The notes under the pieces were generated by a model. The model was not told where the DNA came from, made no database searches, and worked only from the letters and a program-made list of their open reading frames with translations. This document shows, in pieces, positions 28,206 to 45,218 of a DNA stretch of 64,000 bases. The translations under genes and the position numbers were made by a program. The stretch comes from Candidatus Marinacidobacterales bacterium (GTDB taxonomy: Bacteria > Acidobacteriota > Vicinamibacteria > Marinacidobacterales > SMYC01): positions 1,450,175-1,514,174 of the forward strand of contig CBDFNJ010000001.1 of NCBI GenBank assembly GCA_965250115.1. The letters run 5' to 3'. The stretch's first letter is position 1, and every line of letters begins with the position of its first letter.

Positions 28206-28856
28206 TTACGCCGTGTAGACGAGGTGGTGGATGCGGCCGATCTTTCCGCGTTGCGAGAGTCGGTAGAATCTCCTCAGCTCGGGCAGCAACCTCGCGAAGC
28301 GACCTCTCGATAGCGCGGCTTGCACAAAGTGGGAACAATATCGCGAGGCGAGCGAGCTGGCCACCTCGTAGCGCTCGCGTCGGCCGCCCTCGATGTCCGC
28401 GCGGACCTCGAAGTCGCCGAAGAGGCGGTCGAGGAGATCCTTGGGGACCCGGCCTCGGTTCCTCGACGCCAGAAGCAGCGTTGCCGTCACGAACTTGTCA
28501 ACTTCCGCCTGTAGCTCCAGCTCCAGTTCCGTTACGACGCGCTCCCTTGACGCACTGAAGAGAAGGTAGGCAAAGTGGCTGACCTCCTCGATGGCCGTGA
28601 CCAGGGTCTCGAAGCTCTCGGACGTCATTTGCACCGAAAGGTCGATCTCCCGCAGCCGGCCGAGCTTCTCATCGTCGATATAGACTCCGAGCTCGAGCTC
28701 CTCGCCCCGCTCGTTTTGACGAACGAGCACTTTGCTGTGCCTCGGGTCGGCGCCGAAGTGGGCACAGAGGTCTCCCGTGATCAAGAAATCGCGGATATCG
28801 ACCTCGAGCTCCAAACTATAGACCTGATCGATATGCCTGAGAATGGACTCGAGCAT
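28206..28856 (-). CDS. hypothetical protein (216 aa), no recognisable domain
   Basis: A clean ORF with good codon-position GC pattern. It is co-directional with and downstream of the PilB/GspE-like ATPase. Confidence 0.4.
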   Translation of the reverse strand: MLESILRHIDQVYSLELEVDIRDFLITGDLCAHFGADPRHSKVLVRQNERGEELELGVYIDDEKLGRLREIDLSVQMTSESFETLVTAIEEVSHFAYLLFSASRERVVTELELELQAEVDKFVTATLLLASRNRGRVPKDLLDRLFGDFEVRADIEGGRRERYEVASSLASRYCSHFVQAALSRGRFARLLPELRRFYRLSQRGKIGRIHHLVYTA

Positions 28857-28859
28857 GGT

Positions 28860-29447
28860 TCAGTGTATTACGCGCGGCGTCGTGCCCAGCTGAATGCCTT
28901 CGCGTCGAAGTAACGCCTCGCTGCGCCTGCTGCCCGTTTGAAGCCACTTCTCGTAGAGACGCAGAATGCCTCCCACCTCGGAGAGCGCGCTCTCCTCGCT
29001 CACCTCGTTGAGCACGTCGACGAACCGTCCGAACTTCGCGGAAAGCTCGTAATAGACTTCCGCCGCCTCACCAGGGCTGAGACGAGCGGCACGTCCGTAG
29101 GCATAGCATCCCATGCGCACATAGTAGTCGAGATCGACGCGCCGTCGAGCGATGCTATCGGAAAAGAAGCCGGAAACGAACAGCGCCAGATCGCCCGTGA
29201 ACTTCAAGAGCGTGAATCGTCGTCGTCCCTCGCTCTGAAGCGCGTCGCCGAGAATCTCGGCAAGAGTCTGATCTTTGTCGAGCTCCGCTCCCCTATAAAG
29301 ATCGTCGAAGCTCACGAAATTATCGAGAAGCTGTACCAGATAAAAGGAAGAAAGCTCACTCGATGCGAAGCCCTGCCGTGCCATCGCGTTTTCCACGAGC
29401 TCCTTGAAGAGCATCACCGGCGTCTCAGAGTGAACCAGCTTGTCCAT
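28860..29447 (-). CDS. hypothetical protein (195 aa), no recognisable domain
   Basis: A clean ORF 3 bp upstream of the previous one, between the ATPase and hyp-216. Confidence 0.4.
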   Translation of the reverse strand: MDKLVHSETPVMLFKELVENAMARQGFASSELSSFYLVQLLDNFVSFDDLYRGAELDKDQTLAEILGDALQSEGRRRFTLLKFTGDLALFVSGFFSDSIARRRVDLDYYVRMGCYAYGRAARLSPGEAAEVYYELSAKFGRFVDVLNEVSEESALSEVGGILRLYEKWLQTGSRRSEALLRREGIQLGTTPRVIH

Positions 29448-29665: not shown

Positions 29666-31258
29666 TCACTCGACGAACGTGACCTTGTTGATATCGGAAA
29701 GCGTCGTCACCCCTGCAAGGACTTTCTCGATGGCCTGTTCTCTCAACGGACGCATCCCTTCCTCGCGCGCGACACGCTTCAGTTCGGCCGTGCTCTCGCG
29801 TTCGAGAACCAGCTCGCGCAATCGATCGGTCAGTCCCAGGAGCTCGCAGAGCGCAGTGCGGCCGCGAAAGCCCGACCCGTGACATTCGTAACAGCCGGCG
29901 CCTTCGAAGAAACGTCCATCGAAGGTAGGATCGAGCAGACCGGAGAGCTCGAGCTCGTCGTTGTCGACTTCGACCTGGCGGCGGCAACGCTCGCAGATGC
30001 GACGCACGAGTCGTTGAGCCATGACGCAGTTCAGGGCGGACACGAAGTTGTAGGGCTCGACTCCCATGTGAAGAAAGCGGCCAATCACATCGAAGGCGTT
30101 GTTGGCATGGACCGTCGTGAACACGAGGTGTCCGGTCAGCGCAGCCTGAACCGCGATGGTCGCGGTCTCGGGATCGCGCACCTCACCGACCATGATCGTA
30201 TCCGGATCGTGTCGAAGGATGGATCGCAGCCCCCGGGCGAAGGTCAAGCCCTTCTTCTCGTTCACTGGAACCTGGGTGATGTGTTGAATCCGATATTCCA
30301 CCGGATCCTCGATTGTGACGATCTTCTGCTCGGCGGACGCGATTTCGGAAAGAGCGGCGTAGAGCGTGGTGGTCTTGCCGCTACCCGTCGGTCCAGTCAC
30401 GAGAACCATCCCATAGGGTTCGCGAATGAACTTTCGCAAGCGTTTGAGCTCGAGATTGGGAAAGCCGAGTAGATCGAGTCTGAGCTCGGAGAACTGCTCG
30501 CTAATGGACTCTTTGTCGAGGATTCGAACGACGACATCCTCACCATAGATGCTCGGCATGATCGAGACGCGGAAATCGATGGGTCGGCCCCTTATCCTGA
30601 GCTTGAATCTCCCATCCTGCGGAATCCGCCTTTCCGCCACGTCCAGCTCCGCCATGACCTTGAGCCTCGAAACGATGGTGGAGTGGTGAATGCGATCGAC
30701 GGGTTCCATAGCGGGATAGAGGACGCCGTCGATACGATACTTCAGAAGGACTTTCTCTTCTTTCGTCTCGACGTGGATGTCGCTCGCCCGACGCTCGAGC
30801 CCATTGAGCAGAAGCGAGTGCACGAGCTTGATGATCGGGGAAGCCGTCTCGGCTTCAGCGTCGAGGTCTCGTTCGTCATCCTCGTCGTCGGCTCTTGCCT
30901 GGAGCTTGAGCTCCTCAGAAGCCTTGTCCAGGAGGAAGGAAGAGCTTCGGTTGCGAGCCAGAATCTCCTCGATCGCGGAAGCGCTCGCGACCTCGATGGT
31001 CAGAGGACGCCCGAGGGTCAGCTCGAGCGCGTCGAGCTCGCCATATACGCTCGGGTCGGAGACGGCGACGACCAGCCTCAGACCCTCCGCTCGCAACGGG
31101 ACAAAGCGGTAGCGAAGAAGGAGGTTCATCGGAACCTCCTGCCAGACCTCAACGTCCTCGCGAAACCCTGTCAAATCGACGAAAGGATACCCGTAGCGCT
31201 CCGCGAGCTCCCGGGCTTGCTCCCCGTCCGTAACGCTTTTCTCGTTTTGGGTCGACAC
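29666..31258 (-). CDS. PilB/GspE/MshE-family secretion ATPase (N-terminal T2SSE_N/MshEN-like domain, Walker A GPTGSGKTTT, C-terminal tetracysteine)
   Basis: It has LVTGPTGSGKTTTLYA, Asp/His boxes, CERCRRQ...CYECHGSG, and an N-terminal GYPFVDL. No GspF/PilC, pilin or secretin genes are nearby. Confidence 0.8.
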   Translation of the reverse strand: MSTQNEKSVTDGEQARELAERYGYPFVDLTGFREDVEVWQEVPMNLLLRYRFVPLRAEGLRLVVAVSDPSVYGELDALELTLGRPLTIEVASASAIEEILARNRSSSFLLDKASEELKLQARADDEDDERDLDAEAETASPIIKLVHSLLLNGLERRASDIHVETKEEKVLLKYRIDGVLYPAMEPVDRIHHSTIVSRLKVMAELDVAERRIPQDGRFKLRIRGRPIDFRVSIMPSIYGEDVVVRILDKESISEQFSELRLDLLGFPNLELKRLRKFIREPYGMVLVTGPTGSGKTTTLYAALSEIASAEQKIVTIEDPVEYRIQHITQVPVNEKKGLTFARGLRSILRHDPDTIMVGEVRDPETATIAVQAALTGHLVFTTVHANNAFDVIGRFLHMGVEPYNFVSALNCVMAQRLVRRICERCRRQVEVDNDELELSGLLDPTFDGRFFEGAGCYECHGSGFRGRTALCELLGLTDRLRELVLERESTAELKRVAREEGMRPLREQAIEKVLAGVTTLSDINKVTFVE

Positions 31259-31452: not shown

Positions 31453-33883
31453 ATGGATTTTCTCAAGAGCTATCTGCCGGCGCCGGTCGTCGATATCTTC
31501 CTGCCCGTTTTCATCGTCGTCGTGATCGTCGTGATCGTCGCTCTCGTCTATCCGCGGCTCGCCGCGAAGATCAAGGAGACCGGTGCCTGGGACCGCGTCG
31601 TCGACAAGGTAGGCGGCGAGAAGCTCCGGCTCATGCAGTTCGAGCGCGAGATAAGCCGCTTGCAGAAGTCGGGGAATCTCGTCGGCGCCGCGCGCCTCTA
31701 CGAGGAAGCCGAATGGTATCCGGAAGCGATCAATCTATACATAGAAGCCGAAGAGTTCATCACCGCAGGGACGCTCTACGAGCAGCTCGAGCAGTGGGAC
31801 CGTGCCTCCGACATGTACCAGAAAGCCGACGACTGGAAGCGTGCCTCGCGCATGCTCGTCAAAGTCGGAAAGCACGGCGAAGCGGCTAAACACTTCGAGC
31901 AGCACGGCCAGAAGATCGACGCCGCGAAACTGTATCTCGACGCGGGACAATACGATCGCGCTGCCGCGCTCTACGAGGACGTCTCCTAATTTCCCCCAGG
32001 CGGCGAAGTGCTACGAAAAGCTCGGCCAGTACATCAAGGCGGCCGAGAACTACGAACAGCACTGGTCTGCCACGACGTCGGTAGGTGGCAGCGGCCTCAT
32101 CTCCTCGCCCTCCGATCGCGAGGCCAAGGTCGCGTTGCACGCCGGCCAGCTCTACGAAAAGGGCGGTGCTCCCGAACGTGCGGCTGAGCTCTACAAGCGC
32201 GCTGGTCTTTCGAACCAGGCGGCGACGCTCGCCGCCAAAGAAGGGCGTTTCAAAGACGCAGCGGAAATGCTCCTCAAAGAGGAGAAGCTCGAGGAAGCAG
32301 CCGGCATGTTCGAACAGGCCGGCGAGGCCAAGCGAGCCGCGCTTCTGCGTGGCGAGGTGGCCTTTCACCGAGGCGACGCGGCCTTCGCGGCCGACAAGTT
32401 TCTCGAAGGCGGCGACAACCTGCGAGCTGCGGAAATCTACGAATCGATCGGGAACCTGAGCGCCGCTGCGCGCTGCTACGAGGAGAGCGAGGCGCCCATC
32501 CAGGCCGCGAATGTCTACCTGAGAGCCAACGACAAGGACCAAGCGGCGGCCATGTTCGAGCGAGGCCGAGATTTCGAGCAAGCGGCTCGACTCTACGAGG
32601 ATATCGGCACCCTCCCCAAGGCCTCCTCTCTCTACGAACAGAGCGGGCGGCTTTACGAAGCGGGCAAGCTGGCCCACCAGCTCGACGACAACGAACGTGC
32701 GATCGAGCTTCTGCAGCAGATCGACGCAAGCCACGAGCACCACGATTCCGCGACACTCATTCTTTCGCGTCTGTTCATCAAGAAGGACATGCCGGCCCTC
32801 GCGGTGGACAAGCTGCGTCGGCTGCTCGGAGAACAGCAAATCAGCTCGCAGACGCTCAAGCTCTTCTATTGCCTCGGACTGGCTCAGGAGAAGCTTGGCA
32901 AGACGAGTGAAGCGATCGATACGTTCCGCAAGATCATGACGGAGCGCTATGGATACGAAGATGTGGAGCAGCGCATCGCCCGTTTGGGTTCACCGGGGGC
33001 GCCAGATCCCGCACCTCAAGCGCCGACCGCGGCGGAGCTTGCGCAGCCGGCCGTGGCTCCTGCTCCTGCAAGTGCTCCGGCATCCGCTCCAGCCGGGGCG
33101 GCGCCCCGAGCGGCCTCGGCGACCGCCGCTTCTCCGATAGAGCTTGCTGAGGAGCTCGGAAAGGGACTGCTCGGCGTCTCCTACAAGGGGGTCGACACGC
33201 GCAGCGGGCGCCCGGTGGTCGTCAAGCTCCTCCGAGACGACCTGCTCGCGGATCGCGACGTGTTCCAGCAGTTCCTGGCAGAGGCGAAGCTCGCGCGCGG
33301 GCTCGAGCATCCGAGCCTGGTTCGTCTTCTCGGTCTCATCGAGATTCAGGGAAAGAAGGCGGCCGTCAGCGAGTACGTAGAGGGATTCAATTTGACGGCC
33401 TTTCTCGCCAAGAACCAGCGCATCTCTCTCAAACAAGCCGTCGATCTTCTGACCAACCTCTCGGCAGCTCTCGGCTACGCGCACGAGCGCCGTTTGCTCC
33501 ACCGGCACCTCAAGCCGGCGAACATCCTCGTCGCGGGAGGAGGCAAGCTCAGGCTTACCGGTTTCGGGCTCGGAGCCCTTCGGCTCCCCAATTTGGGCCG
33601 CGCCGATGGCTATCCGTCCCCCGAGCTCTTAAGCGGGTCGCCCGTCGACCCGAGGTCGGACATCTACTCCTTGGGCGCCGTGATCTTTCACGCGTTGACT
33701 GGATTCCATCCAGATAGCGAGCAACTGTCTCAGAACGGAGCTTCGGCGCGCCTGAAACAAGTCTTGCCAGAGGCACCGGAAGCGCTCGACCAGATTCTCG
33801 CTCGCTGCCTCATGAAGAATCCTGCCGAGCGTTTCGGCTCTACGAACGAGATCGCCGACGCCGTACGGACCGTGCAAATCTGA
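31453..33883 (+). CDS. membrane-anchored repeat protein with C-terminal Ser/Thr pseudokinase domain (apparent +1 frameshift at ~31987)
   Basis: It has an N-terminal TM helix. Its ~27 tandem 13-aa repeats (AAxxYExxGxxxx) span the ORF1/ORF2 junction, with the repeat register preserved if one T at ~31987 is skipped. A Pro/Ala linker follows. The kinase fold has Gly-loop LGKGLLGVSYKG and Lys VVVK, but HRHLKPAN (HRD to HRH) and GFG (DFG to GFG). Confidence 0.6.
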
Positions 33884-33955: not shown

Positions 33956-34627
33956 ATGACGGTCATGTCGAACACGTGCTGGTCCTGCCAGAAGGTCAAA
34001 GGCAAAAGGGCTTGTCCCGCGCGCGGGGACGAGCTCATCTGCTCGCGATGCTGTGGGACGAAGCGCGGCGTCGAGATCCGATGTCCGAGCGGTTGCCCCT
34101 ATCTCCGCGGAGGCCACGACGCGAAGTGGGAATCCGCCGCCCAGCAGAAAGAGGAAACACGTTTCTTGAGTCACTTCCTGGGCCTTCAGGACCGGGAGGC
34201 GGCCTTCCTGTTCTTCGTGCACCATCTGATCCTCCAGGCAGGCGGACGGCTCGGAACCCTGTCGGACGGCGGGCTCTCGGACGTTCTGGAGTCCACGCTC
34301 AAGACCCTCGAGACCCGCTCCAAGGGCGTCGTCTATCAGCATACCTGCAGCGCATCGGAGCTTCAGCCACTAGCGAACTGGCTCGTGCAGGTCTTTTCGG
34401 CACGCGGCGAGCTCGCGAACGCGCCAGAGGTGTCGGACGATGACGCGATTCGGGTTCTCGGAACGATGCGCCTCGCGGTGGTGGCCCACGAGCAGCACGC
34501 CTCAGCCCGGAGGACCTATCTGGAGACGGCGGTCCGTGTCATGGGCCCGAGTCTTTCGGATGCACCTGCCATCGAGCTGCCGGAGACAATGAGCTTGCCG
34601 AGCGGCGATCGGATCGTGTCAAGGTGA
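33956..34627 (+). CDS. Cys-rich zinc-ribbon protein (hypothetical)
   Basis: An N-terminal CWSCQK...CP...CSRCCG...CPSGCPY followed by a ~170-aa unknown domain. Confidence 0.45.
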   Translation: MTVMSNTCWSCQKVKGKRACPARGDELICSRCCGTKRGVEIRCPSGCPYLRGGHDAKWESAAQQKEETRFLSHFLGLQDREAAFLFFVHHLILQAGGRLGTLSDGGLSDVLESTLKTLETRSKGVVYQHTCSASELQPLANWLVQVFSARGELANAPEVSDDDAIRVLGTMRLAVVAHEQHASARRTYLETAVRVMGPSLSDAPAIELPETMSLPSGDRIVSR

Positions 34628-34696: not shown

Positions 34697-36844
34697 GTGA
34701 GCGAGGCGGCCTTGGTCGAGATTAGTCACCGCGAGAGGGTCGTCCGGGCCAAGATTATCTATTACGGCCCGGCGGCTGGCGGGAAGACGACGAATCTAGT
34801 CGTGCTTCATCGCTGTGCCGATCCCAAACGCAGAGGCGAGATGGTATCGGTGAACTCGACGCAGGATCGGACGATCCTTCTCGACCTCTTGCCGATGAAA
34901 ACCCCAGCGTTTCGTGGTTACGACCTCCGCTTTCAGGTCATTGCGGTGCCGGGCCAGCGGATGTATGCGGCGAGCCGCAAACTGCTGCTCAACGGCGCTG
35001 ACGCAGTCGTTTTCGTAGCAAACTCCGCCGCGGACCGGTGGGAAGAAACCATTCAGAGTCTCCGCGAGATGAACCAGAACCTGCTCACGCATGGCCTGGA
35101 CCCTGCGACCATCCCGGTCACGCTGCAGTACAACAAGCGCGATCTTCCGGAGGTCACGCCCATGGAAGTGATGGAGCGCACGCTGAACGCGCGGCGCACC
35201 GCCAGTTTTTCCGCGGTCGCCATCCGCGAAGAAGGCGTTTTGGAAACTTTCGCGGCGGCACTCAAACAGACCATGGAGGACATCACCACGCGATTCAAGC
35301 TCGGCGCCAATACGCGCAACGCTCGCTCCATCGAAGAGTGGACGGCCGAGTCCATGCGCGCGATGTTCGAGTGGTCTCCCGTCGCCGACAACGACCTGAT
35401 GTCCGCGGCCAGCGGAGCCACGGCGCCGTCCACGAGTCGCGAAGCCAAAAACCCATCGACAGCGTCGCCCCCCGCAACGCCGCAACAACATACGCGGGTT
35501 GCCGTCAAAGTGCCGGTGGCACGATCCATCGAAGGCGGCTCTTCGCCGTCGGCAGCTACTCCCGCGAGCGATCCCCAGGCAGCCGAAGCCCTCGTCGACA
35601 GCTACGCCCAGGCGGCCGCCGATCTCACGACCGCGCTCGAGGACATGCGGGACCGACGCGAACTGTCGGAGCAGCGTGCGAAGGATCTCGTCGCTCCCTT
35701 CGACGCGGCACAATCGCTTCTTCGCGGCTCTCCGTCGGACGACGTTCTGCGAACCTTGTTGATGCGCATCGCGGAGAGCCTGGGCGCAGTGAGTAGCTCG
35801 CTGTCTCTCGTGAAAGAGAACGAGCTTCGGCCCGTGATCTTGCTCGGTCTTCAGCGAGAGCCACCGTTCTCAACGGTCGATGGCTCCGGTCGTCCTCTCG
35901 CGATGGGATTGCTCGAAAGCGCGAAGCCTCTGGTTTTCGCCCTCGGGGATCCAGGACCCCTGGGCGACGTTCTGGAGAAGAGCGGCGGCAAGCTCACGTC
36001 GATCGTGGCGATCCCAATCCGAACGCCCGAGGCGACGGTCGGGCTCGCGTGCTTCTACCTCGCGCCCGAGTCCGCATCGCCGCACCCCGAGGCCATCGAT
36101 CATCTAGACCGACTCGGCAACGGGATCGCACTCGTCATCGAGCTCGCCGCCGGGCGCATCGCTCGCGAGCGGCTCGGGCTGAGTGAACGCATGGCGCTAA
36201 CGGGCCGCGTCTCCGAGCAGGCCATTTTGGAGATCGGACCGCCCCTCGACAGACTCTTCGCGACTCTAGGCCGCGTTCGCGCGCAGCAGAATGTGCCCGA
36301 TAGTTTTCTCAACGAATTGAAGGGCATGGGTATGGAGCTGTCCTGCGCCAAGAGGTACCGGGACGCGGTGCTCGGGCTCATGGTGGGACAGCCGCCCGCT
36401 ATGGAGCTCGTGCCGCTCGCGAACGTATTCCACGGGGTTCGGGTTTGGACGGCGGATAGTCTCGAGCGCCACGCGGTGCGCCTCGAAACAACACAGCCCT
36501 CCCCGGGAGACCGCGTGAGGACGGACGCGTTCCTCCTTCGGTCGGCGCTCGCCGCCCTCGTCGAGCGTTCCGAGAACGACTTTGCCGGCCACTCGGGAGG
36601 CTTGATTCGACTTTCGTCGAGAATCGATAACGGGCGCGCCTACATACAAATCGCCGACAACGTTGCCGCGATCCGAAACTCCCGTAACGGAGCGGAAGAC
36701 TACGTCGCCTGGACGCTGAACCGCAACTCGAGAGGCTGGCCTTTGTCTTTCGTCGCGAACGTCGTCGCTTACTCACATGGTCAGTGGACGAACTCGGCGA
36801 CCGAGCACGGAAACGAGCTCACCATGATCCTCTCCGCGCAATAA
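34697..36844 (+). CDS. MglA-like Ras-superfamily small GTPase fused to a ~520-aa C-terminal region (GAF-like + GHKL/HATPase-like)
   Basis: The first ~195 aa align motif-by-motif with MglA: YYGPAAGGKTTN (P-loop), DRT (switch I), AVPGQ (switch II), ADAVVFVANS, QYNKRDLP (G4). The C-terminal region has GAF-like segments and GHSGGLIRLSS / NGRAYIQIADNV, resembling GHKL ATPase boxes. Confidence 0.7.
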   Translation: MSEAALVEISHRERVVRAKIIYYGPAAGGKTTNLVVLHRCADPKRRGEMVSVNSTQDRTILLDLLPMKTPAFRGYDLRFQVIAVPGQRMYAASRKLLLNGADAVVFVANSAADRWEETIQSLREMNQNLLTHGLDPATIPVTLQYNKRDLPEVTPMEVMERTLNARRTASFSAVAIREEGVLETFAAALKQTMEDITTRFKLGANTRNARSIEEWTAESMRAMFEWSPVADNDLMSAASGATAPSTSREAKNPSTASPPATPQQHTRVAVKVPVARSIEGGSSPSAATPASDPQAAEALVDSYAQAAADLTTALEDMRDRRELSEQRAKDLVAPFDAAQSLLRGSPSDDVLRTLLMRIAESLGAVSSSLSLVKENELRPVILLGLQREPPFSTVDGSGRPLAMGLLESAKPLVFALGDPGPLGDVLEKSGGKLTSIVAIPIRTPEATVGLACFYLAPESASPHPEAIDHLDRLGNGIALVIELAAGRIARERLGLSERMALTGRVSEQAILEIGPPLDRLFATLGRVRAQQNVPDSFLNELKGMGMELSCAKRYRDAVLGLMVGQPPAMELVPLANVFHGVRVWTADSLERHAVRLETTQPSPGDRVRTDAFLLRSALAALVERSENDFAGHSGGLIRLSSRIDNGRAYIQIADNVAAIRNSRNGAEDYVAWTLNRNSRGWPLSFVANVVAYSHGQWTNSATEHGNELTMILSAQ

Positions 36845-36856
36845 CGAGCGGTCTCG

Positions 36857-37864
36857 ATGCGAGCCCAGGTCATGGTCCTAGGGCCGGTCGAGCGTGAACT
36901 CCGGCTTCACCTCATCGACGACTTGCTGCCCAGTGGGTCGAAGCGCGCTGACGAGATCTCGTGGAGCATCAGCGGTTATTCTCTCGAGCTGGCGGAGCGG
37001 CTTTTCAAGCTCGAGCTCTCGTCCGGACTCATAGCCACTCTGGGCGATACGCCAGAGGATCTACAGATGATCGCGGAGATCCGCAAGCGTGGTGTCCAGA
37101 CCCGCGCCATCCAACAGGGCGGAGCGGGCCGCATGACGGTTCGCCTACGAACACCGAGCCAATCCATCCAAATCGAGCCCGTAGCGCCCGTTGTGCCCCC
37201 CAAGATGCCGGACGTCGTCTCGGCGCTCAGGCAGGCACGCCATCTCCACGTGTGTCCCGAAAGCTCGCTCTCAGGTCCGGTCCGGCAGCGAAACCTCCAA
37301 GCGCTCACCTACGCTCGGCAATCCGGTCTCTCGACCTCCTTGAGCCTTCCAGATCGGCTGGACGCGCCCCGGCAAATCGACGCGGTGGAACGTGTATCCC
37401 TCCTCTCGGAGGTGGACGTCCTCTTCGCACGGGGCAATGTCCTACGGTCCCTGGCCGGAGAGCGCCGGCTGGCTCGCGCCGTAGACGTCCTCTTCGATTG
37501 GGGGGTTTCCGTCGTGGCGGCCTCGCTGGACGCGGGGGGTGTTCGTATCTACGGACACACCGAGGCGGAAAGGATCCCGAGCTTCGGCAACGAGGTGGCT
37601 TCGCCCGGAGCCGCGTTCGCGAGCGGTTTTTTGCTCGGATGGCTCCTCGGATCGCCCTTGACTTGCTGCGGATTAATGGGCGCGGCCGCCGCGCTCCGGG
37701 GCGAGCGTCACAGGCTCCCCGACCGTCGTAGGGTTTCCGGGCGCCTGGGACGCGCTCGCAGCGCTCCGAGCCTGCGGAGGCTGGTGCCAGATCTGATGGA
37801 GGCCCAGAGGGTTTTGTCGCGGAGGAAGCGATTGCCCCCGCGGTCTCGAGCCCGAGGTGTCTAG
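36857..37864 (+). CDS. PfkB/ribokinase-fold protein with degenerate active site (possible pseudoenzyme); 3' end uncertain
   Basis: The N-terminal beta-clasp pattern (MVLGPVERELRLHLIDDLLPSGSK...) and C-terminal VASPGAAFASGFLLGWLLG resemble the DTTGAGDAF anion hole, but with GAGD replaced. Confidence 0.4.
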   Translation: MRAQVMVLGPVERELRLHLIDDLLPSGSKRADEISWSISGYSLELAERLFKLELSSGLIATLGDTPEDLQMIAEIRKRGVQTRAIQQGGAGRMTVRLRTPSQSIQIEPVAPVVPPKMPDVVSALRQARHLHVCPESSLSGPVRQRNLQALTYARQSGLSTSLSLPDRLDAPRQIDAVERVSLLSEVDVLFARGNVLRSLAGERRLARAVDVLFDWGVSVVAASLDAGGVRIYGHTEAERIPSFGNEVASPGAAFASGFLLGWLLGSPLTCCGLMGAAAALRGERHRLPDRRRVSGRLGRARSAPSLRRLVPDLMEAQRVLSRRKRLPPRSRARGV

Positions 37865-38169: not shown

Positions 38170-40989
38170 ATGGGTGAGTCATTTCTCAGACGGGTCTTGT
38201 CTCCCGTCGTGACGTTCCGGGAGGGAGAAGCGGTTACCTGCGTCCTCATGTTCGTCTACTCCTTCCTCGTGATGACCGCTTACAACAACATCAAACCTTC
38301 CGCGGCCTCGAAGTTCATCGCCGATCTCGGCGCCGACAATGTGCCCTATGTGATGCTCATCGCGGGTCTCACGATGGGCTTCATCCTGAACTACTACAGC
38401 CGGGGCCTCACGAAAGTACCCAAGCTCTGGGTGCTTCCCGGAACGCAATTGCTCTTGATCGCCATGCTGGTCGGCTTCTGGTTTCTCTTCCAGACGGGCG
38501 AGGCCTGGCAGGCCTGGATCTCGGCGGCGTTTTTTTTCTTCGGCCGGCTTCTGCTGGGCATCTTTCTCATCAGCCAGTTTTGGACCTTGGCCAACGATAT
38601 CTACGACCCGCGGCAAGCGAAACGGGTCTTCGGATTCATCGGCGGAGGCGCGACCCTGGGAGGCATGACGGGATCGGGCCTCACGGCGCTTCTCGTCAAG
38701 CGGGTCGGCACCGAAAATCTCATCCTGTTCAGCGCGGCGGTGCTCGCCTTATGTTTCTTCCTCATCCTGGAAATTCAGAAAAGAACGAAGCGGGAGGGAG
38801 ATACTGAAGGCTCCTTCGAAGCCAAAGGCAGCACCGTCGGAGGCGGAGAAGCGCTCGCCATGCTGCGAAGCTCCCGGCACCTCAAGCTCATCGCTCTGAT
38901 CATCGGGTTCGGAGCCCTCGGCGCCGCGACGCTCGAGCAACAGCTCTACATGGCTTCCGAGGGCGTCCTCGAGGGACAGGACAGCATCACGAGCTTCCTG
39001 GCCGGCATCACGTTCTACATTTCCCTCATCGGCTTCGTGATTCAGGTTTACTTCACTTCCCGCATCTACAGTCTGCTCGGTATCGGGTTCGCACTTGCCG
39101 TACTCCCGGTGACCCTCGGCGCTACGGCGGTGATGATTCTCACTTACCGCGTGCTCTGGGCGTCCAGCGCGGCTCGAGTAGCGGACAGCGCGCTTCGCTA
39201 CAGCCTCGACAAGACCACGCGCGAAACGCTCTTCCTGCCTTTGCCGACGGAGCTGAAGCTGAAAGCAAAAGGCTTCGTCGACGTCGTCGCGGATCGCTTC
39301 ATTGGCAAGGGCATCGGCTCGGCCATCCTGCTGGTGGCCCTCAAGGTCTTCGACGTCTCCTGGTACCACTTGAGCTTGCTCAGCCTCGTATATTGTGTGC
39401 TGTGGCTCGCTCTGACGCGTCTCGCGAAGAAGGAGTACATGGCCGGGTTCCGGCGCAGCATCGAGACCCTCTCGCTCGAACCGGAGAGGCTCTCACCGGC
39501 GGCGGGCGACGCGGCCACTGTCGAGACGCTCGTCGAGGAGTTGGGGAGCTCGGACGAACGACGGGTTCTGCGCTCGATCGAGCTCCTCGAAGCCCTGGAG
39601 AAGCGAAATCTGATAACGCCTCTGCTTCTGCACCACGCTTCGGCCTCGGTGCGTGCGCGAGCGCTGAGAGCCATCCAGGCAGGCCGGCCCGAGATCGTCT
39701 CTCGGTGGCTCCCGGCCGTGGAGCTCGCGCTAAAGGACGAGGACGGCGACGTTCGCGCCGCGGCAGTGGAGGTCATCGCATCGGCTCGTGCCAGTGGCGT
39801 CCTGGACCTGATGCGAGGCTACCTGCACGACCGCGACCACCGCATCGTGGCAACCGCCGCGATTGCGCTAGCGGAGAGCGACGATGAAGCCGATCGAGTC
39901 GCCGCCTACGACACGCTTGAGCGACTGGCCTCGGATACACGAGGCGCTGCTGCAGCGGCACGCCGTGAAGCGGCGCGCTCCATCGTCCGCACGTCCGACC
40001 CGCGCTTCCGCCACCTCCTCATGCCTCTGATGCAGGACGCGGACCTGAGTGTGGCACGCGAGGCCATTCGAAGCGCTCGTCAGTTGGGCGATGACGATGC
40101 CCTCTTCGTGCCCGCGCTCGTTTCCCTGCTGAGACACCGCAGGCTCAAGAACACTGCCCGGGAAGCCCTCGTCAGCTACGGCGAGACCATCATTCCGACG
40201 CTTACCTACTTCCTCGCGGACGACAACGAGGAACCCTGGGTACGTCGACACATTCCCGAAGTGCTCGCCTTGATTCCAGATCGAGCCTCGGTCGAAGCGC
40301 TTCTCGTCTGCCTGGAGAGCGGCGATGGGTTGCTTCGCTACAAGGCGGTTCAGGCGCTCGAACGAATTCGGCGCATGGACCCGGACCGCGAAATCGACCC
40401 GGAACCGGTCCAGCGACAGCTCTTGAAGGAGGTCGCACGCTACTACCGCTACCTCGGCGCGGGCTATGACCTTTTTGACAAAGGCGGGCTCGCGCGCGAC
40501 TCGCTCGCCGGCCAGGCTTTGCGTGAGAAACTCGAGCGCGGGATGGACCGCATCTGCAGGCTCCTTGGTCTCATCCACTCGTTCCAGGACATCCGTGCGT
40601 CCCGATGGGCAATCGAAAGAGGGGACCCTCGCTCCCGAGCAAGCGCTGTCGAGTTTCTCGACAACACGCTTTCGGGGCAGTTCCGCAAGCTTTTTCTTCC
40701 CCTGGTGGACGACGTACCGCAAGGGGAACGGATTCGGAAGGGTAACGTGTTCCTCAAGACGCGTGTTCGCAGCATCGAGGATACGCTTGCGCGGCTCATC
40801 TACGACGACGACGTCGTTGTGGCCGCCACCGCGATCGACGTGATACGAGAGCAAAAGCTATGGTCGCTCGCGCCGGACCTCGAACAGGTGCTTCAGTTTC
40901 GCGATGCGAAGGACTTCGCGGTCTTCGAGTCCGCCTCCTTCGCGCTCGCGGCCTATCGATTGAGAATGGACGAGCCCCGTGCGATTTGA
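38170..40989 (+). CDS. ATP/ADP-translocase-like (NTT/TLC family) 12-TM transporter fused to C-terminal HEAT/PBS-lyase-type repeats
   Basis: The first ~430 aa are polytopic with NTT-like motifs (FWTLANDIYDPRQAKRVFGFIGGGATLGG). The C-terminal ~500 aa are alpha-helical repeats with recurring E/DxxVRxxAxxAL signatures. Confidence 0.65.
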   Translation: MGESFLRRVLSPVVTFREGEAVTCVLMFVYSFLVMTAYNNIKPSAASKFIADLGADNVPYVMLIAGLTMGFILNYYSRGLTKVPKLWVLPGTQLLLIAMLVGFWFLFQTGEAWQAWISAAFFFFGRLLLGIFLISQFWTLANDIYDPRQAKRVFGFIGGGATLGGMTGSGLTALLVKRVGTENLILFSAAVLALCFFLILEIQKRTKREGDTEGSFEAKGSTVGGGEALAMLRSSRHLKLIALIIGFGALGAATLEQQLYMASEGVLEGQDSITSFLAGITFYISLIGFVIQVYFTSRIYSLLGIGFALAVLPVTLGATAVMILTYRVLWASSAARVADSALRYSLDKTTRETLFLPLPTELKLKAKGFVDVVADRFIGKGIGSAILLVALKVFDVSWYHLSLLSLVYCVLWLALTRLAKKEYMAGFRRSIETLSLEPERLSPAAGDAATVETLVEELGSSDERRVLRSIELLEALEKRNLITPLLLHHASASVRARALRAIQAGRPEIVSRWLPAVELALKDEDGDVRAAAVEVIASARASGVLDLMRGYLHDRDHRIVATAAIALAESDDEADRVAAYDTLERLASDTRGAAAAARREAARSIVRTSDPRFRHLLMPLMQDADLSVAREAIRSARQLGDDDALFVPALVSLLRHRRLKNTAREALVSYGETIIPTLTYFLADDNEEPWVRRHIPEVLALIPDRASVEALLVCLESGDGLLRYKAVQALERIRRMDPDREIDPEPVQRQLLKEVARYYRYLGAGYDLFDKGGLARDSLAGQALREKLERGMDRICRLLGLIHSFQDIRASRWAIERGDPRSRASAVEFLDNTLSGQFRKLFLPLVDDVPQGERIRKGNVFLKTRVRSIEDTLARLIYDDDVVVAATAIDVIREQKLWSLAPDLEQVLQFRDAKDFAVFESASFALAAYRLRMDEPRAI

Positions 40990-41878
40990 ACTGCTTGCTC
41001 CCGTTCCTGCGGTCGCTCTCGCGCAAAAGCTGAGACGCATACCTCTATTCCGATTCGCGTCGGTCGACGAGCTCTTTCGCATCGCCACCATCGCTCGCCA
41101 GGTGCGATACCCCGCTCGAGCCATCGTGCAGGAACGCGGAGCACCGGCGGAGCACCTCCAGGTCCTGCTGGAAGGAAGCTTCGAGCTTGAAGAGCAAGAG
41201 GGCAATAGTCTCCTCGAACCGCCAGCGCTCGTGGGCTTTCAGGAGGTTCTGGAAGGCACGACGATTCGGGCAAGTGCACGGGCCAAGGTCGATTCGATCG
41301 CGCTCGTCATGGCGGCCGAGGAGTTTCGTACGCTGCTCTCGGCGAATATCGAGATCGCGCAGGGATTGTTCCGCTTGCTTCTCGAATCGAGCCGCAATGG
41401 GGCGCGACCAAGTGTCGTCGACGTATCGCGCCTCGAAGACTCGAGCGGCGGAGCTACCCTCAAGACCGTGGACAAGGTCCTCTATCTGCAAGCCATCCCG
41501 ATCTTTGCCCGCGCGGATAGTGACGAGCTCTTCGAGCTAGCCGCGATCACCAAAGATCACGAGCTTCAGCCCAACGCCATCTTGTTCTCCGAGGGCGATC
41601 CTGCTTCGATTCTCGCGCTCCTTTCTGGGGAGATCGAGCTCATGCCAGCTTCAGGAGGCGAATCCTTCCAAGTGGCCGCGGGACAGTGCATCGGCGTCAA
41701 CGAGACCCTCGCGGGAGCCTCGTGGCCGTTCAGGGGACGTGTCACCGAGGCGGGTAGGGCCCTCGATATTCATCGCGAGCTGTTTTTCGAGCTCCTGTCG
41801 GACCGGCTCGACCTGCTGCAAACCATCTTCGGTGCCGTCTTCCAGGGGAAGAAGGCGGAAGAGACCAGCGAAACATGA
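40979..41878 (+). CDS. tandem cyclic-nucleotide-binding (cNMP) domain protein
   Basis: Two CAP-like effector domains (IPLFRFASVDEL...; IPIFARADSDEL...) with a GTG start overlapping the upstream stop. No DNA-binding HTH is evident. Confidence 0.6.
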   Translation: MRFELLAPVPAVALAQKLRRIPLFRFASVDELFRIATIARQVRYPARAIVQERGAPAEHLQVLLEGSFELEEQEGNSLLEPPALVGFQEVLEGTTIRASARAKVDSIALVMAAEEFRTLLSANIEIAQGLFRLLLESSRNGARPSVVDVSRLEDSSGGATLKTVDKVLYLQAIPIFARADSDELFELAAITKDHELQPNAILFSEGDPASILALLSGEIELMPASGGESFQVAAGQCIGVNETLAGASWPFRGRVTEAGRALDIHRELFFELLSDRLDLLQTIFGAVFQGKKAEETSET

Positions 41879-43584
41879 AAAGCCGTATCACGCTGCGACT
41901 TCACCATGCGATCATGCTGTTGCTCGCACTACTGATCTTCGCGACGGCAGACGCGGCTTTCGCAGACGATCCCCAGTGCGAGTGGACCGGGGTCGAGCGG
42001 ATCGTCGCCATCGGAGACATTCATGGCGCTTACGACAACTTCGTCGCGGTATTGAAGAACGCGAAGCTGCTCGACAACAAGCTGAGATGGACCGGTGGGA
42101 AGACCCACCTGGTACAAAACGGCGACATCGTCGATCGCGGCCCTCACTCGCGCAAAGCAATGGAATTGTTGATGAAGCTCCAGGACAAAGCCGAGGAGGA
42201 CGGCGGTCGAGTCCACGTTCTCATCGGCAATCACGAGGCGATGAACGTCGTCGGCATTGTAAATCTCGTTTCAGCCAAAGAGTTCGAGTCCTATACCAAC
42301 GCCGACTCGGCCCAACGACGAGAGTCCACCTTCGATCGCTACTACGAGAACCTTCGTAAGGAGGCCAAGGCAAGAGGCGAAGGGGTTCCCATAAGGAGGA
42401 TTGCCGAGAAGGATTTCAAAAAAAAGTACCCGCTTGGCTACGTCGAGCACCGCCACGCCTTCGGAGAAAGAGGCAAGTATGGAAAGTGGATCCGTCGGCT
42501 GAATGCCGCCGTCAAGATCAACGGGATCGTCTTCTCTCACGGAGACTTCGGTGAGAAATTCTCCGAGATTGGCATCGAAGCCTTGAACCAGCGCGTCCGG
42601 CAGGAGCTCTCTGGTGAAATCCCGCTCGAGGGTGGCTATACCTTCGATGCGGAAGCGCCGCTGCAGTACCGCGGCCTCGCGGAGGTGAACTTGAATCGCG
42701 TCGCTCAAGAGGCAGAGCTCGCGCGAGTGGATCGAATCCTCGCCAAATTGGGTGCGACCCGGATGGTCGTCGGCCACACGTCGACGTCGGGTGTGATCGA
42801 GTCACGTTTCGGGGGAAAACACATCAGTATCGATACGGGTATGCTCGAGCTCTACCGCGGCGGGCATCGCGCCGCCCTCTCGATCGAAGGGGACAGGCTC
42901 GAAGCGATCCACGATCGTGGAGCCGTCGAAATCCCTGAGTGGATGGACGATTCCAACTTCGTGGCCTATGTGAGGGCCGTTTCCGCAGTCGATCCAGAGA
43001 ACGCGGACGCGCAGCTGATCCTCGTCGATTCCTTGCGAGACGATGGAAGCAACGCCGAGGCGGCCACGATTCTCGAAAGCTTGTTGCAAAGGCGGAATTT
43101 GGTACCGTTCCGCTACCGCGAATTTCTCGGCGCTCACTACGAGGCGCGAGGCGAGCTCAAGCGGGCACGTTCCGAGTACCTCGCCTATATCGACGGGCTC
43201 ATCGCACTCGTCAATGCGAACCCCGACAACCTCAACCTCGCCAACCTCCTGGCGCGCTTCTGTATCGAGAAGACGCTGAAGCTGGACCTCGCTGCGGAAG
43301 TCGTCGGGCGCGTCATTGCCGGGTCTCCGGAAAACGAAGGGTTCCAGCTGACTCAGGCCAAGCTTCACCTGGCTCGAAGCGAGTACCAAGAGGCGCGTTT
43401 AGTCCTCGAAAGGATCGCGAAAGGAGAAGGGCTGGACTATGACGTTTACGTCATGACCGGTCGCGCCTACGCGGGGCGGAACGACATCGAAAAGGCACGA
43501 GAGGCGTTCGAATCGGCGCTCCGAATCGAACCGGAGCGGGATGAAGCCAAGACGGAGTTGGAGAAGTTGGGCGGATTACCGTAG
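41875..43584 (+). CDS. secreted calcineurin-like metallophosphoesterase with C-terminal TPR region
   Basis: A signal peptide, then MPE motifs GDIHG, GDIVDRG, GNHE and GHT, then a C-terminal helical TPR-like ~200 aa. Confidence 0.7.
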   Translation: MKSRITLRLHHAIMLLLALLIFATADAAFADDPQCEWTGVERIVAIGDIHGAYDNFVAVLKNAKLLDNKLRWTGGKTHLVQNGDIVDRGPHSRKAMELLMKLQDKAEEDGGRVHVLIGNHEAMNVVGIVNLVSAKEFESYTNADSAQRRESTFDRYYENLRKEAKARGEGVPIRRIAEKDFKKKYPLGYVEHRHAFGERGKYGKWIRRLNAAVKINGIVFSHGDFGEKFSEIGIEALNQRVRQELSGEIPLEGGYTFDAEAPLQYRGLAEVNLNRVAQEAELARVDRILAKLGATRMVVGHTSTSGVIESRFGGKHISIDTGMLELYRGGHRAALSIEGDRLEAIHDRGAVEIPEWMDDSNFVAYVRAVSAVDPENADAQLILVDSLRDDGSNAEAATILESLLQRRNLVPFRYREFLGAHYEARGELKRARSEYLAYIDGLIALVNANPDNLNLANLLARFCIEKTLKLDLAAEVVGRVIAGSPENEGFQLTQAKLHLARSEYQEARLVLERIAKGEGLDYDVYVMTGRAYAGRNDIEKAREAFESALRIEPERDEAKTELEKLGGLP

Positions 43585-43616: not shown

Positions 43617-44703
43617 TGCCTTGGTGCACAACTCCGATAGAGGCCGATAGCTCGCTTGGCCCCGACTCCCATCATCCGATCATCTCGCTATCAGGCATCC
43701 CGAGGGCCGTCATCGTGTTGAGAATCTTGCACCCGATCCTTGCCTCGACTCTCTGTGCCGCCAACCCTCTCGCTCGCATCGCTGAGCCCACGATAGCCTT
43801 GTAGCGATGGAACGTTGTCTCGACTTTGCTCCGTTTGCTGTAGCCCGATTCTGTGTGCCACTTTCGTTTGCCGAGCCGAGCTTGTGCTGCAATGTTGCGA
43901 TTGCGCTGTCGGCTGCTCGCCGGCCCCGATGCGAGCTGGGCGCCCTTGCGCGGCGGTATCAGCACCCTCGGCGAGCGATGAGCGCTGTGATTCTCGATCG
44001 CCTCATAGACGCCGCTGGCGTCGTATGCGGTGTCAGCTCTGGCCGATGAGATGGGACTGTCGATCTGTCCGACAAGCGATGCAACCCGCGATGAATCGCG
44101 GGCTCTTTTGCTCGTCAGCTCGCCGGCGACGACTTCGCCAGTCTGCTCGTCGACACACAGATGGAGCTTGCGATAGTCCCTGCTCTTTGGTGCTCTGCGC
44201 AGCTGGCCGGCGTGGACAGCGAGACCGCTGCTGTCGATCAAGATGTGCAACGGCGTCTTCTGCTTGTCTTGGTAGAAGGGGACCTTACCCAGCTTCGCCT
44301 TGCGCCTCGAAATCGTGGTGTGATCGGGCACATCATTGTCTAGCTTCATCAGAGCGAACAACGATCGCAGCAATCCCTCGCTCTGCCTAGATGACAGATG
44401 AAACACCCTGCCCAGGGTGACAGCCGTCTCGATGGCGTGGTTCGAGTACTTGCGTTGACGGCCCGGTTTCCTCCTCCTCGGCCGGGGCGCGTCCCAGTTC
44501 ACAAGCTTGCCGGCGGTGAGCGAGATCCAGACGGTCAGGCTCCCACGGTTGCGTAGACCCGCCTCATATTCACGCCAACTCCTCACGCGATAGGCCTTCT
44601 TCACATACTTCCGCTGAGTGCGTTTGAAAATGCTCATGGGGAACCTCGAATCCGTGAGTACAGGACAATTGTGGACCGAGATCGCGAGTTGTGCACCAAG
44701 GCA
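43617..44703 (-). mobile_element. IS5-family insertion sequence (~1.09 kb)
   Basis: An 18-bp perfect inverted repeat: TGCCTTGGTGCACAACTC at 43617-43634 and its complement at 44686-44703. It contains a DDE_Tnp_1 transposase. Confidence 0.65.
43672..44637 (-). CDS. IS5-family DDE transposase
   Basis: It begins MSIFKRTQRKYVKKAYRVRSWREYEAGLRNRGSLTVW. The DDE region has LHILIDSSGL... and the C-terminal HTESGYSKRSKVETTFHRYK is typical. Confidence 0.75.
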   Translation of the reverse strand: MSIFKRTQRKYVKKAYRVRSWREYEAGLRNRGSLTVWISLTAGKLVNWDAPRPRRRKPGRQRKYSNHAIETAVTLGRVFHLSSRQSEGLLRSLFALMKLDNDVPDHTTISRRKAKLGKVPFYQDKQKTPLHILIDSSGLAVHAGQLRRAPKSRDYRKLHLCVDEQTGEVVAGELTSKRARDSSRVASLVGQIDSPISSARADTAYDASGVYEAIENHSAHRSPRVLIPPRKGAQLASGPASSRQRNRNIAAQARLGKRKWHTESGYSKRSKVETTFHRYKAIVGSAMRARGLAAQRVEARIGCKILNTMTALGMPDSEMIG

Positions 44704-45218
44704 GTTCTCCAGCAGCAGGTGGCCGAGCTCGACCGCGGCCAACGCTCGGTGACACGGACCGCGCCCCCGACTAATGACCCGACCCACCAGATATTGGCCG
44801 CTTGAACGAGCTGGGCTCGAGACGGTGTTCGCAGAATTACGGGAGCGCGTCGCCAGCGCCCACCGAGGAGGAGCTTGGCCTCTACGAAGGTCTCCCTCTT
44901 TGTTGCTGCCCCAATCGTCTCCAAACCGTCTCCAAAACTGGGGAGGACTCCAGAGGACTCGGGGAGATAGCCCGCCGAAAAAAAAGCCTCAACGGAGTTT
45001 CGATTGCCGCTACTCTGTCAACGCCCCCGTCTTCGCGAGGGCTCTTTAAAGGAGCATGTCCTGCGTTCGACGCGGAGGCTATTTGGACTGATGTCGGCGA
45101 TGCTGGGCCGAGCGTTCTCGTTTAATGGAGTCTCATTAAGTAATGTTGCGGCGTTCCCCGGGTGTTCCCCCAGCGGCAAAACAGACTTCGGCGAGTACCA
45201 GTAAGTGCCTGATTCGAT

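Follow-up and report, generated by a model that had tools for sequence, protein, structure and literature searches.

Ras-like switches of bacteria are known almost only as single-domain proteins that work with separate regulators, as MglA does with MglB and RomR/RomX, and the main survey of prokaryotic Ras-like GTPases took only proteins of 240 aa or less (PMC4316618). In the actinobacterial conservons (AGPS), a kinase-type sensor, a GAF protein and an MglA-family GTPase are found in one unit (the kinase CvnA, the Roadblock protein CvnB, CvnC, the GTPase CvnD and, in some cases, the GAF protein CvnF; PMC4316618, PMC13343842), and how the kinase and the GTPase communicate is still an open question (PMC13343842). 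Here we describe a gene in a stretch of 64,000 nucleotides from a Candidatus Marinacidobacterales bacterium (Acidobacteriota; contig CBDFNJ010000001.1, positions 1,450,175 to 1,514,174), called the window throughout. Its product carries an MglA-type G domain, a GAF domain and a sensor-kinase-like module in a single polypeptide, with the kinase fold maintained under selection and its catalytic motifs degenerate.

The fusion gene and its authenticity

The gene occupies positions 34697..36844 of the positive strand as one uninterrupted frame of 715 codons and a stop (36842-36844). The preliminary description of this DNA had noted that the frame runs on past the G domain, and it does so in the homologs as well, which are full length at 99% coverage. 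That description placed the start at the GTG at 34697; the true start is probably the TTG at 34712, giving a protein of 710 aa, because the homologs start with MVEI(S/N)H and a database protein of 100% identity, P0001, is 710 aa long. A GAGG precedes this TTG in the upstream sequence that we read. Residue numbers of the fusion protein count from the GTG (715-aa version). A promoter and terminator scan gave counts near chance, with nothing usable beside the fusion gene; only inspection by eye revealed a TATAAT some 30 nt ahead of the ORF (open reading frame).

Among 5.8 billion proteins searched there were more than 100 clusters of homologs covering 99% of the query at 37-73% identity, drawn from assemblies of JGI, ENA, NCBI and Logan. 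When residues 290-715 alone were used in an exhaustive HMMER search of 1.84 billion proteins, 92 representatives (50%-identity clusters) were found, and at residues 1-195 nearly all of those with at least 600 aa matched the G domain (E = 1e-53 to 1e-113). Five lacked an N-terminal G domain: P0145, P0202, P0204 and P0208, which are weak and probably unrelated matches, and P0129, which is cut at its N-terminus; shorter matches to the C-terminal module without a G domain are, judged by length alone, probable fragments. Two loci would suit the view that a missed stop or frameshift merges two separate genes: the ortholog in L007 (10001-12141) is annotated as two pieces of 172 aa and 518 aa, and L006 (10013-10575) shows a frame break near residue 65. 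These breaks are isolated, and both loci belong to metagenome-assembled genomes (MAGs), where indel errors are possible. Against a merger stand also the independent assemblies from which the full-length clusters come, the C-terminal module that is essentially never seen apart from the G domain, and the purifying selection on the junction. With full-length homologs on many independent contigs, a frameshift artefact is excluded for practical purposes, its probability being negligible. The MglA-type G domain and the C-terminal module are a genuine, conserved and obligate fusion. The frame breaks of L006 and L007 themselves reflect either MAG indel errors or recent pseudogenisation.

Domain organisation

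An AlphaFold2 model was built from a 21-sequence family alignment (mean predicted local distance difference test, pLDDT, 75; predicted template modelling score, pTM, 0.41). The model, the alignment, Pfam and structure searches divided the protein into these parts:

34718..35296, positive strand: MglA-type G domain, residues 8-200 (PDB MglA match, Foldseek)
35309..35380, positive strand: family-specific helix, residues ~205-228 (model helix 212-224; alignment)
35381..35566, positive strand: disordered linker rich in Ala, Ser, Pro and Thr, residues 229-290 (pLDDT, composition)
35573..35722, positive strand: long helix, residues 293-342, entering the GAF domain (model)
35735..36076, positive strand: GAF domain, residues ~347-460 (Pfam in relatives, alpha/beta topology of the model, Foldseek)
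36086..36385, positive strand: DHp-like helical hairpin, residues 464-563, with helices 464-529 and 536-563 (model)
36404..36835, positive strand: CA (GHKL/Bergerat)-like alpha/beta domain, residues 570-713 (hhalign, Pfam in relatives, Foldseek)

In the 21-sequence alignment W215 and F224 are invariant in the helix that follows the G domain, as are S302, Y303, A306, A307 and L310 in the long helix 293-342, which is a probable coiled-coil or signalling helix. The linker, with pLDDT values below 50 at 229-266 and 277-289, is the least conserved segment and carries a short conserved V-x-V motif around V272. Disorder in the C-terminal region is confined to residues ~229-290, and the region is otherwise modelled as folded; the possibility raised in the preliminary description, that it is a low-complexity extension without a fold, is thus answered in the negative by the structure prediction.

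The GAF domain gave the only Pfam signal of the query alone, and this was sub-threshold (E 0.008; 17.1 bits, the cutoff being 22.4). Among the 21 relatives, Pfam recognised GAF in 11 (best E 6e-7), GAF_2 in eight and GAF_3 in six, with a best value overall of ~2e-7. Foldseek matches of this region to phytochromes and GAF kinases agree with the modelled topology, and the GAF-like segments seen earlier by eye are borne out. In the PDB, the part beyond the G domain found its structural neighbours in WalK, bacteriophytochromes, the YF1 LOV-kinase, DivL, HK853 and KinB. The maximum 19-residue Kyte-Doolittle score was 1.32, i.e., there is no hydrophobic segment, and the protein is therefore predicted to be cytoplasmic.

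The G domain

Residues 9-195 aligned with the MglA proteins of Myxococcus xanthus and Thermus thermophilus (PDB 5ymx, 6h17 and 3t12) with E = 5e-42 to 3e-39, and target-normalised Foldseek TM (template modelling) scores of 0.82-0.87 to eleven MglA chains indicate the MglA fold. The G-motif strings quoted in the preliminary description are all present: the P-loop GPAAGGKTT (24-32), DRT (57-59), AVPGQ (83-87) and QYNKRDLP (144-151), the last identical to MglA G4. K30, T31, R58, T59, G86, Q87, N146, K147 and D149 are invariant in the 21 sequences, and R58, T59 and Q87 align to MglA R53, T54 and Q82, the intrinsic Arg finger, switch I Thr and catalytic Gln. The nucleotide-binding and catalytic set (P-loop Lys/Thr, Arg finger, Gln and NKxD) is complete.

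A match to MglA in all G-motifs had been claimed, which holds for the P-loop, Arg finger, Gln and NKxD and fails at two hallmark residues, Gly21 and Thr78, both Ala here. MglA Gly21 (the equivalent of Ras G12) corresponds to Ala26; the position is Ala in 13 and Pro in one of 14 fusion loci of the Vicinamibacteria type, among which L001, L002 and L008 are overlapping copies of one region, so that the independent count is somewhat lower. Thr78 corresponds to Ala83, and all 14 loci have Ala there; as in MglA, the residue is not the Asp of DxxG. The other 72 MglA loci fetched had Gly21 in 64 cases and Thr78 in 70. In M. xanthus MglA, G21V lowers hydrolysis, and T78A is stable but functions poorly (PMC3000849), while the MglA of Bdellovibrio, where mglB is lost, has Ser as residue 21 (PMC3983030), a published residue-21 pattern of mglB-less MglA that our Bdellovibrio locus L076 repeats. 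As judged from its sequence, the G domain descends from Group 1 MglA; it departs from MglA in three membership features, namely Thr78, Gly21 and the single-domain (~195 aa) organisation with mglB.

The C-terminal kinase-like module

The profile of the C-terminal family aligned with HK853 at 97.8% and with EnvZ at 95.8% probability (hhalign); the 97.8% of the HK853 profile alignment suggests that the reference sequences taken for the two kinases are usable. HATPase_c was matched in seven of the 21 relatives and the RsbW-like HATPase_c_2 weakly in three. Together with the sensor kinases found by Foldseek, these results uphold the GHKL-like C-terminus of the preliminary description as a homology. 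The strings GHSGGLIRLS and NGRAYIQIADN, offered there as ATP-binding boxes, turned out to be structural strands of the CA fold, the boxes themselves not being intact.

Across 38 diverse full-length members that were aligned, DHp helix 1 showed no conserved phospho-acceptor His, and HisKA was matched in none of 31 family members scanned with Pfam. The expected H-box site, residues ~509-517 by extrapolation from the HK853/EnvZ alignments, reads A-I-L-E-I-G-P-P-L, in which L511-E-I-G-P-P-L517 looks like a remnant of HE[LI][RK][TN]PL with Leu511 in place of the His. H469 was considered as an alternative phospho-acceptor and found unlikely, lying 42 residues before the canonical site. In the N box, Arg624 aligns to the Mg-binding Asn (HK853 N380, EnvZ N347); the G1 box is D654-N-V-A-A instead of DxGxG, and the G2 box is R-G-W-P-L-S instead of GxGLGL. 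D654, the adenine-contacting Asp, is nearly invariant, and the lid region has a conserved DY(V/L)AW motif. The G1 glycines are absent in every member except P0195, and the most distant clade has the G1-to-lid region deleted. P0195, a distant member, retains the N, G1, F and G2 boxes in canonical form (98.4% against HK853), which points to an ATP-binding ancestor. The missing His, Arg624, DNVAA and RGWPLS speak against the GTPase-regulated ATPase or kinase-like switch that had been proposed; on sequence grounds, the C-terminal module is a kinase fold without the residues needed to autophosphorylate or to bind ATP canonically.

Selection was estimated from ratios of non-synonymous to synonymous substitution rates (dN/dS). 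Against the 95%-identical L007 ortholog these were 0.10 for the G domain, 0.29 for the linker, 0.20 for GAF, 0.33 for DHp and 0.16 for CA, and against a 67% ortholog they were 0.05-0.25; across both comparisons the G domain, the most strongly constrained part, had 0.05-0.10 and CA 0.11-0.16. Every domain is thus under purifying selection despite the lost catalytic motifs, which argues for a maintained pseudo-kinase.

Absence of adjacent mglB and of other expected partners

Genes for MglB were searched by tblastn with M. xanthus MglB in fetched flanks of ~8-10 kb, a procedure whose validity was shown by a hit with 90.6% identity in a Myxococcaceae locus. The loci were classed by ORF length beyond the G domain; one further locus ran off a contig end and was left unclassified, and the 23 fused loci include the overlapping copies L001, L002 and L008. 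An adjacent mglB was found as follows:

True single-domain MglA: 40/47 loci
Sensor- or kinase-fused MglA: 0/23 loci
Other long-tailed MglA: 6/15 loci

The clade of the window protein has thus dispensed with adjacent MglB and changed two hallmark residues. No Roadblock gene was found in any inspected neighbourhood, no other conservon-type core genes were seen in the neighbourhood scans, and there were no MglB, RomR, Frz or pilus-machinery genes within the window. No response regulator was near the window fusion nor near L001, L003, L004, L005, L086 or L087, orphan partners elsewhere in the genome being possible.

C-terminal extensions of more than 100 aa were present in 24 of the 71 classifiable non-Vicinamibacteria MglA loci listed, nine of these 24 being sensor or kinase fusions, a proportion (24/71) that is biased upward since the scan was ranked by similarity to the window protein. 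The statement that large fused effectors are rare among such GTPases needs to be qualified to this extent, and MglA proteins with extensions seem commoner than the survey limited to 240 aa would show. MglA with an adjacent mglB plus C-terminal tails of 118-295 aa was observed at L085 (10001-11326), L048, L064, L075, L078 and L081; hosts of such mglB-adjacent long-tailed MglA include a Zixiibacteriota, two Planctomycetota and an Ignavibacterium MAG, and the one tail that was read (L085) is acidic and of low complexity.

Distribution and related acidobacterial fusions

The genome scan covered 185,579 species genomes ranked by similarity to the window protein, and the distribution it gives is a lower bound. 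Among the matches listed, the GAF-type fusion was confined to Acidobacteriota MAGs with the label Vicinamibacteria or 'Ca. Marinacidobacterales', with at least two paralogs on chromosome OZ253507.1. The 37 Vicinamibacteria-type G domains were monophyletic in 50/50 neighbour-joining (NJ) bootstraps. Fusions with other architectures were also found:

MglA-PAS-DHp-HATPase_c-receiver, by Pfam: L039 (10001-12361; Holophaga foetida DSM 6591, NZ_KI912268.1, about 2716922-2719282, 787 aa) and the Holophagaceae MAGs L061 and L063
MglA-PAS-DHp-HATPase_c-receiver, by length and motif alignment: L074 and L080, with L049 partial (Holophagae proteins of ~790 aa)
MglA-HisKA-CA-like, ~520 aa, without a sensor domain: L014:385-1941 by Pfam and L015:6614-8194 by eye and motif alignment (Vicinamibacteria/Acidobacteria MAGs)
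MglA-GAF: L017

The H-box His is present in L061, L063, L074, L080 and L014, whereas H. foetida has Asn in its place and L015 has Arg. In the G-domain tree the Holophagae, L014/L015 and L017 fusions were successive sister groups of the window clade, with L014/L015 as its nearest relatives, and a 47-tip clade held all and only the sensor- or kinase-fused G domains with moderate NJ support (29/50). Ala at the Gly21 position is common to the window clade, L014/L015 and P0195, and Ala at the Thr78 position is unique to the window clade. The simplest reading of these sequences would be a single MglA-kinase fusion in an acidobacterial ancestor, whose sensor and output diversified later, the kinase chemistry then being repeatedly relaxed and, in the GAF branch, lost.

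Genomic neighbourhood

The window and the loci L004, L006 and L007 form an ortholog group (50-95% identity) that shares a gene cluster around the fusion. In the window the neighbouring genes are:

28206..29447, negative strand: two conserved genes without a Pfam match, downstream of the PilB/GspE-family ATPase gene
29666..31258, negative strand: PilB/GspE-family ATPase with an MshEN domain (T2SSE 1e-129; below both the PilB and the GspE NCBIfam cutoffs)
31802..33883, positive strand: TPR repeats and Ser/Thr protein kinase, two genes upstream of the fusion (Pfam Pkinase 3e-34 and TPR)
33956..34627, positive strand: Cys-rich protein of 223 aa, upstream of the fusion (zinc-ribbon-like N-terminus, then a helical bundle)
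36857-37864, positive strand: PfkB-family kinase (Pfam; conserved in the cluster, missing only in L006)
38170-40989, positive strand: MFS/TLC-like (ATP/ADP-translocase-like) transporter fused to HEAT repeats, 939 aa (Pfam)
40979-41878, positive strand: cNMP-binding protein (Pfam)
41875-43584, positive strand: Metallophos phosphatase with TPR (Pfam)

The PfkB gene begins after a gap of 12 nt from the stop of the fusion, and the last three genes overlap successively and are all conserved in the cluster. The TPR-Ser/Thr kinase is syntenic in L004, L006 and L007 at 58-92% identity, and L005 has an adjacent match to its kinase domain (30% identity over residues 446-689). In L004, L006 and L007 the alignment with its orthologs begins only at residue ~64, so that the gene probably starts near 31990 and not at the GTG 31802. 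The 223-aa protein has eight invariant cysteines (C8, C11, C20, C29, C32, C33, C43 and C47) and belongs to a family with 28 homologs in the 5.8 billion proteins, found near the fusion wherever the context is visible; five of the 28 members are on contigs equal in length to fusion-bearing ones, and the family co-occurs with the ortholog group of the fusion. A structural search with this protein gave no informative match.

Directly after the conserved cluster lies a DDE transposase (43672-44787, negative strand) that is absent from all the other loci examined, the syntenic L004, L006 and L007 among them, and an rve-type integrase (19450-20808, positive strand) is found further upstream; both are probably genome-specific insertion sequences. 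A separate 493-aa protein (17199-18680, positive strand) has a strong GAF match (E 9e-15) and no other recognised domain. The remainder of the window contains metabolic genes.

Proposed function and alternative explanations

We favour, with modest confidence, a cytoplasmic and probably dimeric scaffold that senses a ligand and controls, or presents, a tethered MglA-type G-protein switch. The flexible linker of ~60 residues would tether the G domain to a module of sensor-histidine-kinase origin, which would dimerise through the DHp-like hairpin and the long helix, as kinases do, and would itself have ceased to phosphorylate. The GAF domain may sense a ligand and so gate the scaffold. The module might then determine in cis which nucleotide its own G domain carries, taking the place of the MglB GTPase-activating protein (GAP) and the RomR/RomX guanine nucleotide exchange factor (GEF); alternatively, it might gate which partners the GTP-bound G domain reaches. 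The output would be a protein-protein interaction and not phosphotransfer, the likely partners in the window ortholog group being the TPR-Ser/Thr kinase, the 223-aa protein, the PilB-like ATPase, the cNMP-binding protein and the phosphatase of the cluster. A bolder version, which we offer as a tentative and decidedly less probable proposal, makes the GAF/pseudo-kinase dimer a built-in, ligand-controlled GAP or GEF for its own MglA domain that replaces MglB and RomR/RomX. If true, the protein would be a one-polypeptide bacterial 'receptor plus G protein', and the acidobacterial fusions (MglA-PAS-kinase-receiver, MglA-HisKA and MglA-GAF-kinase) would record the stepwise conversion of a two-component kinase into a G-protein regulator.

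Several observations weigh against the scaffold reading. The full-length model, with a pTM of 0.41, lends no support to regulation in cis, and the absence of mglB covers only the ~8-10 kb around each locus. Neighbourhoods outside the window ortholog group, i.e., those of the ~37%-identity paralogs and the distant clades, are not conserved, and the proposed partners therefore cannot be family-wide. Some paralogs retain the N-box Asn and some distant members a G2-like GLGLGL, so that the degeneration is mosaic, and residual nucleotide binding is possible in parts of the family. H469, which lies where the helix that leaves the GAF domain begins, 42 residues upstream of the expected His, is nearly invariant.

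Some of these features would also suit a GHKL domain acting as an ATPase or kinase switched by the fused GTPase, with H469 or, as in RsbW/SpoIIAB-type kinases, a Ser/Thr as acceptor. The kept CA fold, the near invariance of D654 and H469, the N-box Asn of the paralogs, the fully canonical N, G1, F and G2 boxes of P0195 and the three weak HATPase_c_2 matches are in its favour. We consider it improbable all the same, given that in the window protein the Mg-binding Asn is Arg and both G1 glycines and G2 are gone, that a distant clade has deleted the G1-to-lid region, that the 38 members have no His at or near the canonical position, from which H469 is ~42 residues or roughly 60 Å of helix away, and that no response regulator lies near any inspected locus. 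A further alternative is a G domain that has stopped cycling and would be a permanently GTP-bound or nucleotide-independent docking or localisation domain, all regulation passing through the GAF/pseudo-kinase. The Ala residues fixed in the clade at positions 21 and 78, the lack of a nearby mglB, the lowered hydrolysis of G21V (PMC3000849) and the S21 of Bdellovibrio MglA, which lacks MglB (PMC3983030), are consistent with such a non-cycling domain. It is nevertheless unlikely: R58 and Q87 are invariant in the 21 sequences and kept in 14/14 fusion loci, and the dN/dS of 0.05-0.10 marks the strongest constraint in the protein, whereas catalytic residues would drift were hydrolysis irrelevant.

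The last alternative, a polarity or pilus-type regulator in the window ortholog group resembling MglA-SgmX-PilB, is compatible with the scaffold reading and is, taken by itself, doubtful. In its favour, four genomes, with identities down to 50%, keep the genes for the PilB/GspE-family ATPase and the TPR-kinase in synteny with the fusion, and in Bdellovibrio a TPR protein is a documented binding partner of MglA, which there affects type IV pili (PMC3983030). On the other hand, the window contains no genes for pilin, PilC, PilM-Q or other parts of the machinery, the ATPase falls short of the PilB as well as the GspE cutoff, the paralogous and distant clades are without these neighbours, and SgmX matches the TPR region without significance (E 0.0099; 14 bits, where the cutoff is 1800).

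Comparison with known systems

A full-text literature search, with most subscription journals outside its scope, returned no description of an MglA-GAF-kinase-core architecture, and the group of MglA/sensor-kinase-like fusions in Acidobacteriota is apparently undescribed. With the MglA proteins of M. xanthus and T. thermophilus, the window protein shares ~40% identity over 188 residues, the P-loop, the Arg finger and switch I Thr, xVPGQ with the catalytic Gln, and an identical G4 motif QYNKRDLP; it differs in its 715 aa against ~195, in the Ala residues at positions 21 and 78, in having no adjacent mglB, and in forming a separate, well-supported clade.

The other acidobacterial fusions (L039; L061/L063/L074/L080; L014/L015; L017; P0195) are built like it, with the MglA-type G domain at the N-terminus and, after it, a linker, a helix and a sensor, a kinase core or both; they too are without adjacent mglB and are the closest G-domain relatives of the window clade. 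The Holophagae proteins differ in having PAS instead of GAF, an additional receiver and an H-box His that is mostly kept; L014 has a HisKA match and no sensor domain, as L015 appears to by eye. All of them keep Thr78, and the Holophagae keep Gly21 as well. The fusion of Holophaga foetida DSM 6591 offers a cultured organism as the entry point for experiments.

In logic alone the protein resembles the Roco proteins, in which a Roc-COR GTPase is fused to kinase or leucine-rich repeat domains, a small-GTPase-type switch thereby being covalently coupled to a signalling enzyme. The likeness to RdcA/RdcB-DgcE of Escherichia coli is of the same kind, a small-GTPase-type switch appearing there as the dedicated partner of a signalling enzyme (PMC6510439). 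The G-domain families and the effector domains of both systems are presumably unrelated to those described here. A parallel for the C-terminal module is DivL of Caulobacter (PDB 4q20), which likewise has a DHp-CA fold without the phospho-acceptor His, repurposed for interaction and sensing (PMC4211667). DivL differs in having PAS domains and no GTPase and in acting with DivK and CckA, whereas no response-regulator partner is evident for the window protein.

The window protein joins covalently the three parts that conservons keep as separate proteins: kinase-type sensor, GAF and MglA-type GTPase. It has no nearby CvnB or CvnC homolog, and its G domain is Group-1-like with an intrinsic Arg finger, whereas Group 2 CvnD proteins have none (PMC4316618). 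The kinase CvnA8 is active both as an ATPase and in autophosphorylation, and transmembrane helices and a HAMP domain are described for CvnA homologs, in contrast to the degenerate, soluble kinase core found here. The protein is thus not a member of a conservon, and the conservon/AGPS is its closest system-level analogue. As a 'Rosetta stone', the covalent MglA-GAF-kinase core argues that kinase-type modules and MglA-type G domains cooperate directly, and that their pairing can outlast the kinase chemistry.

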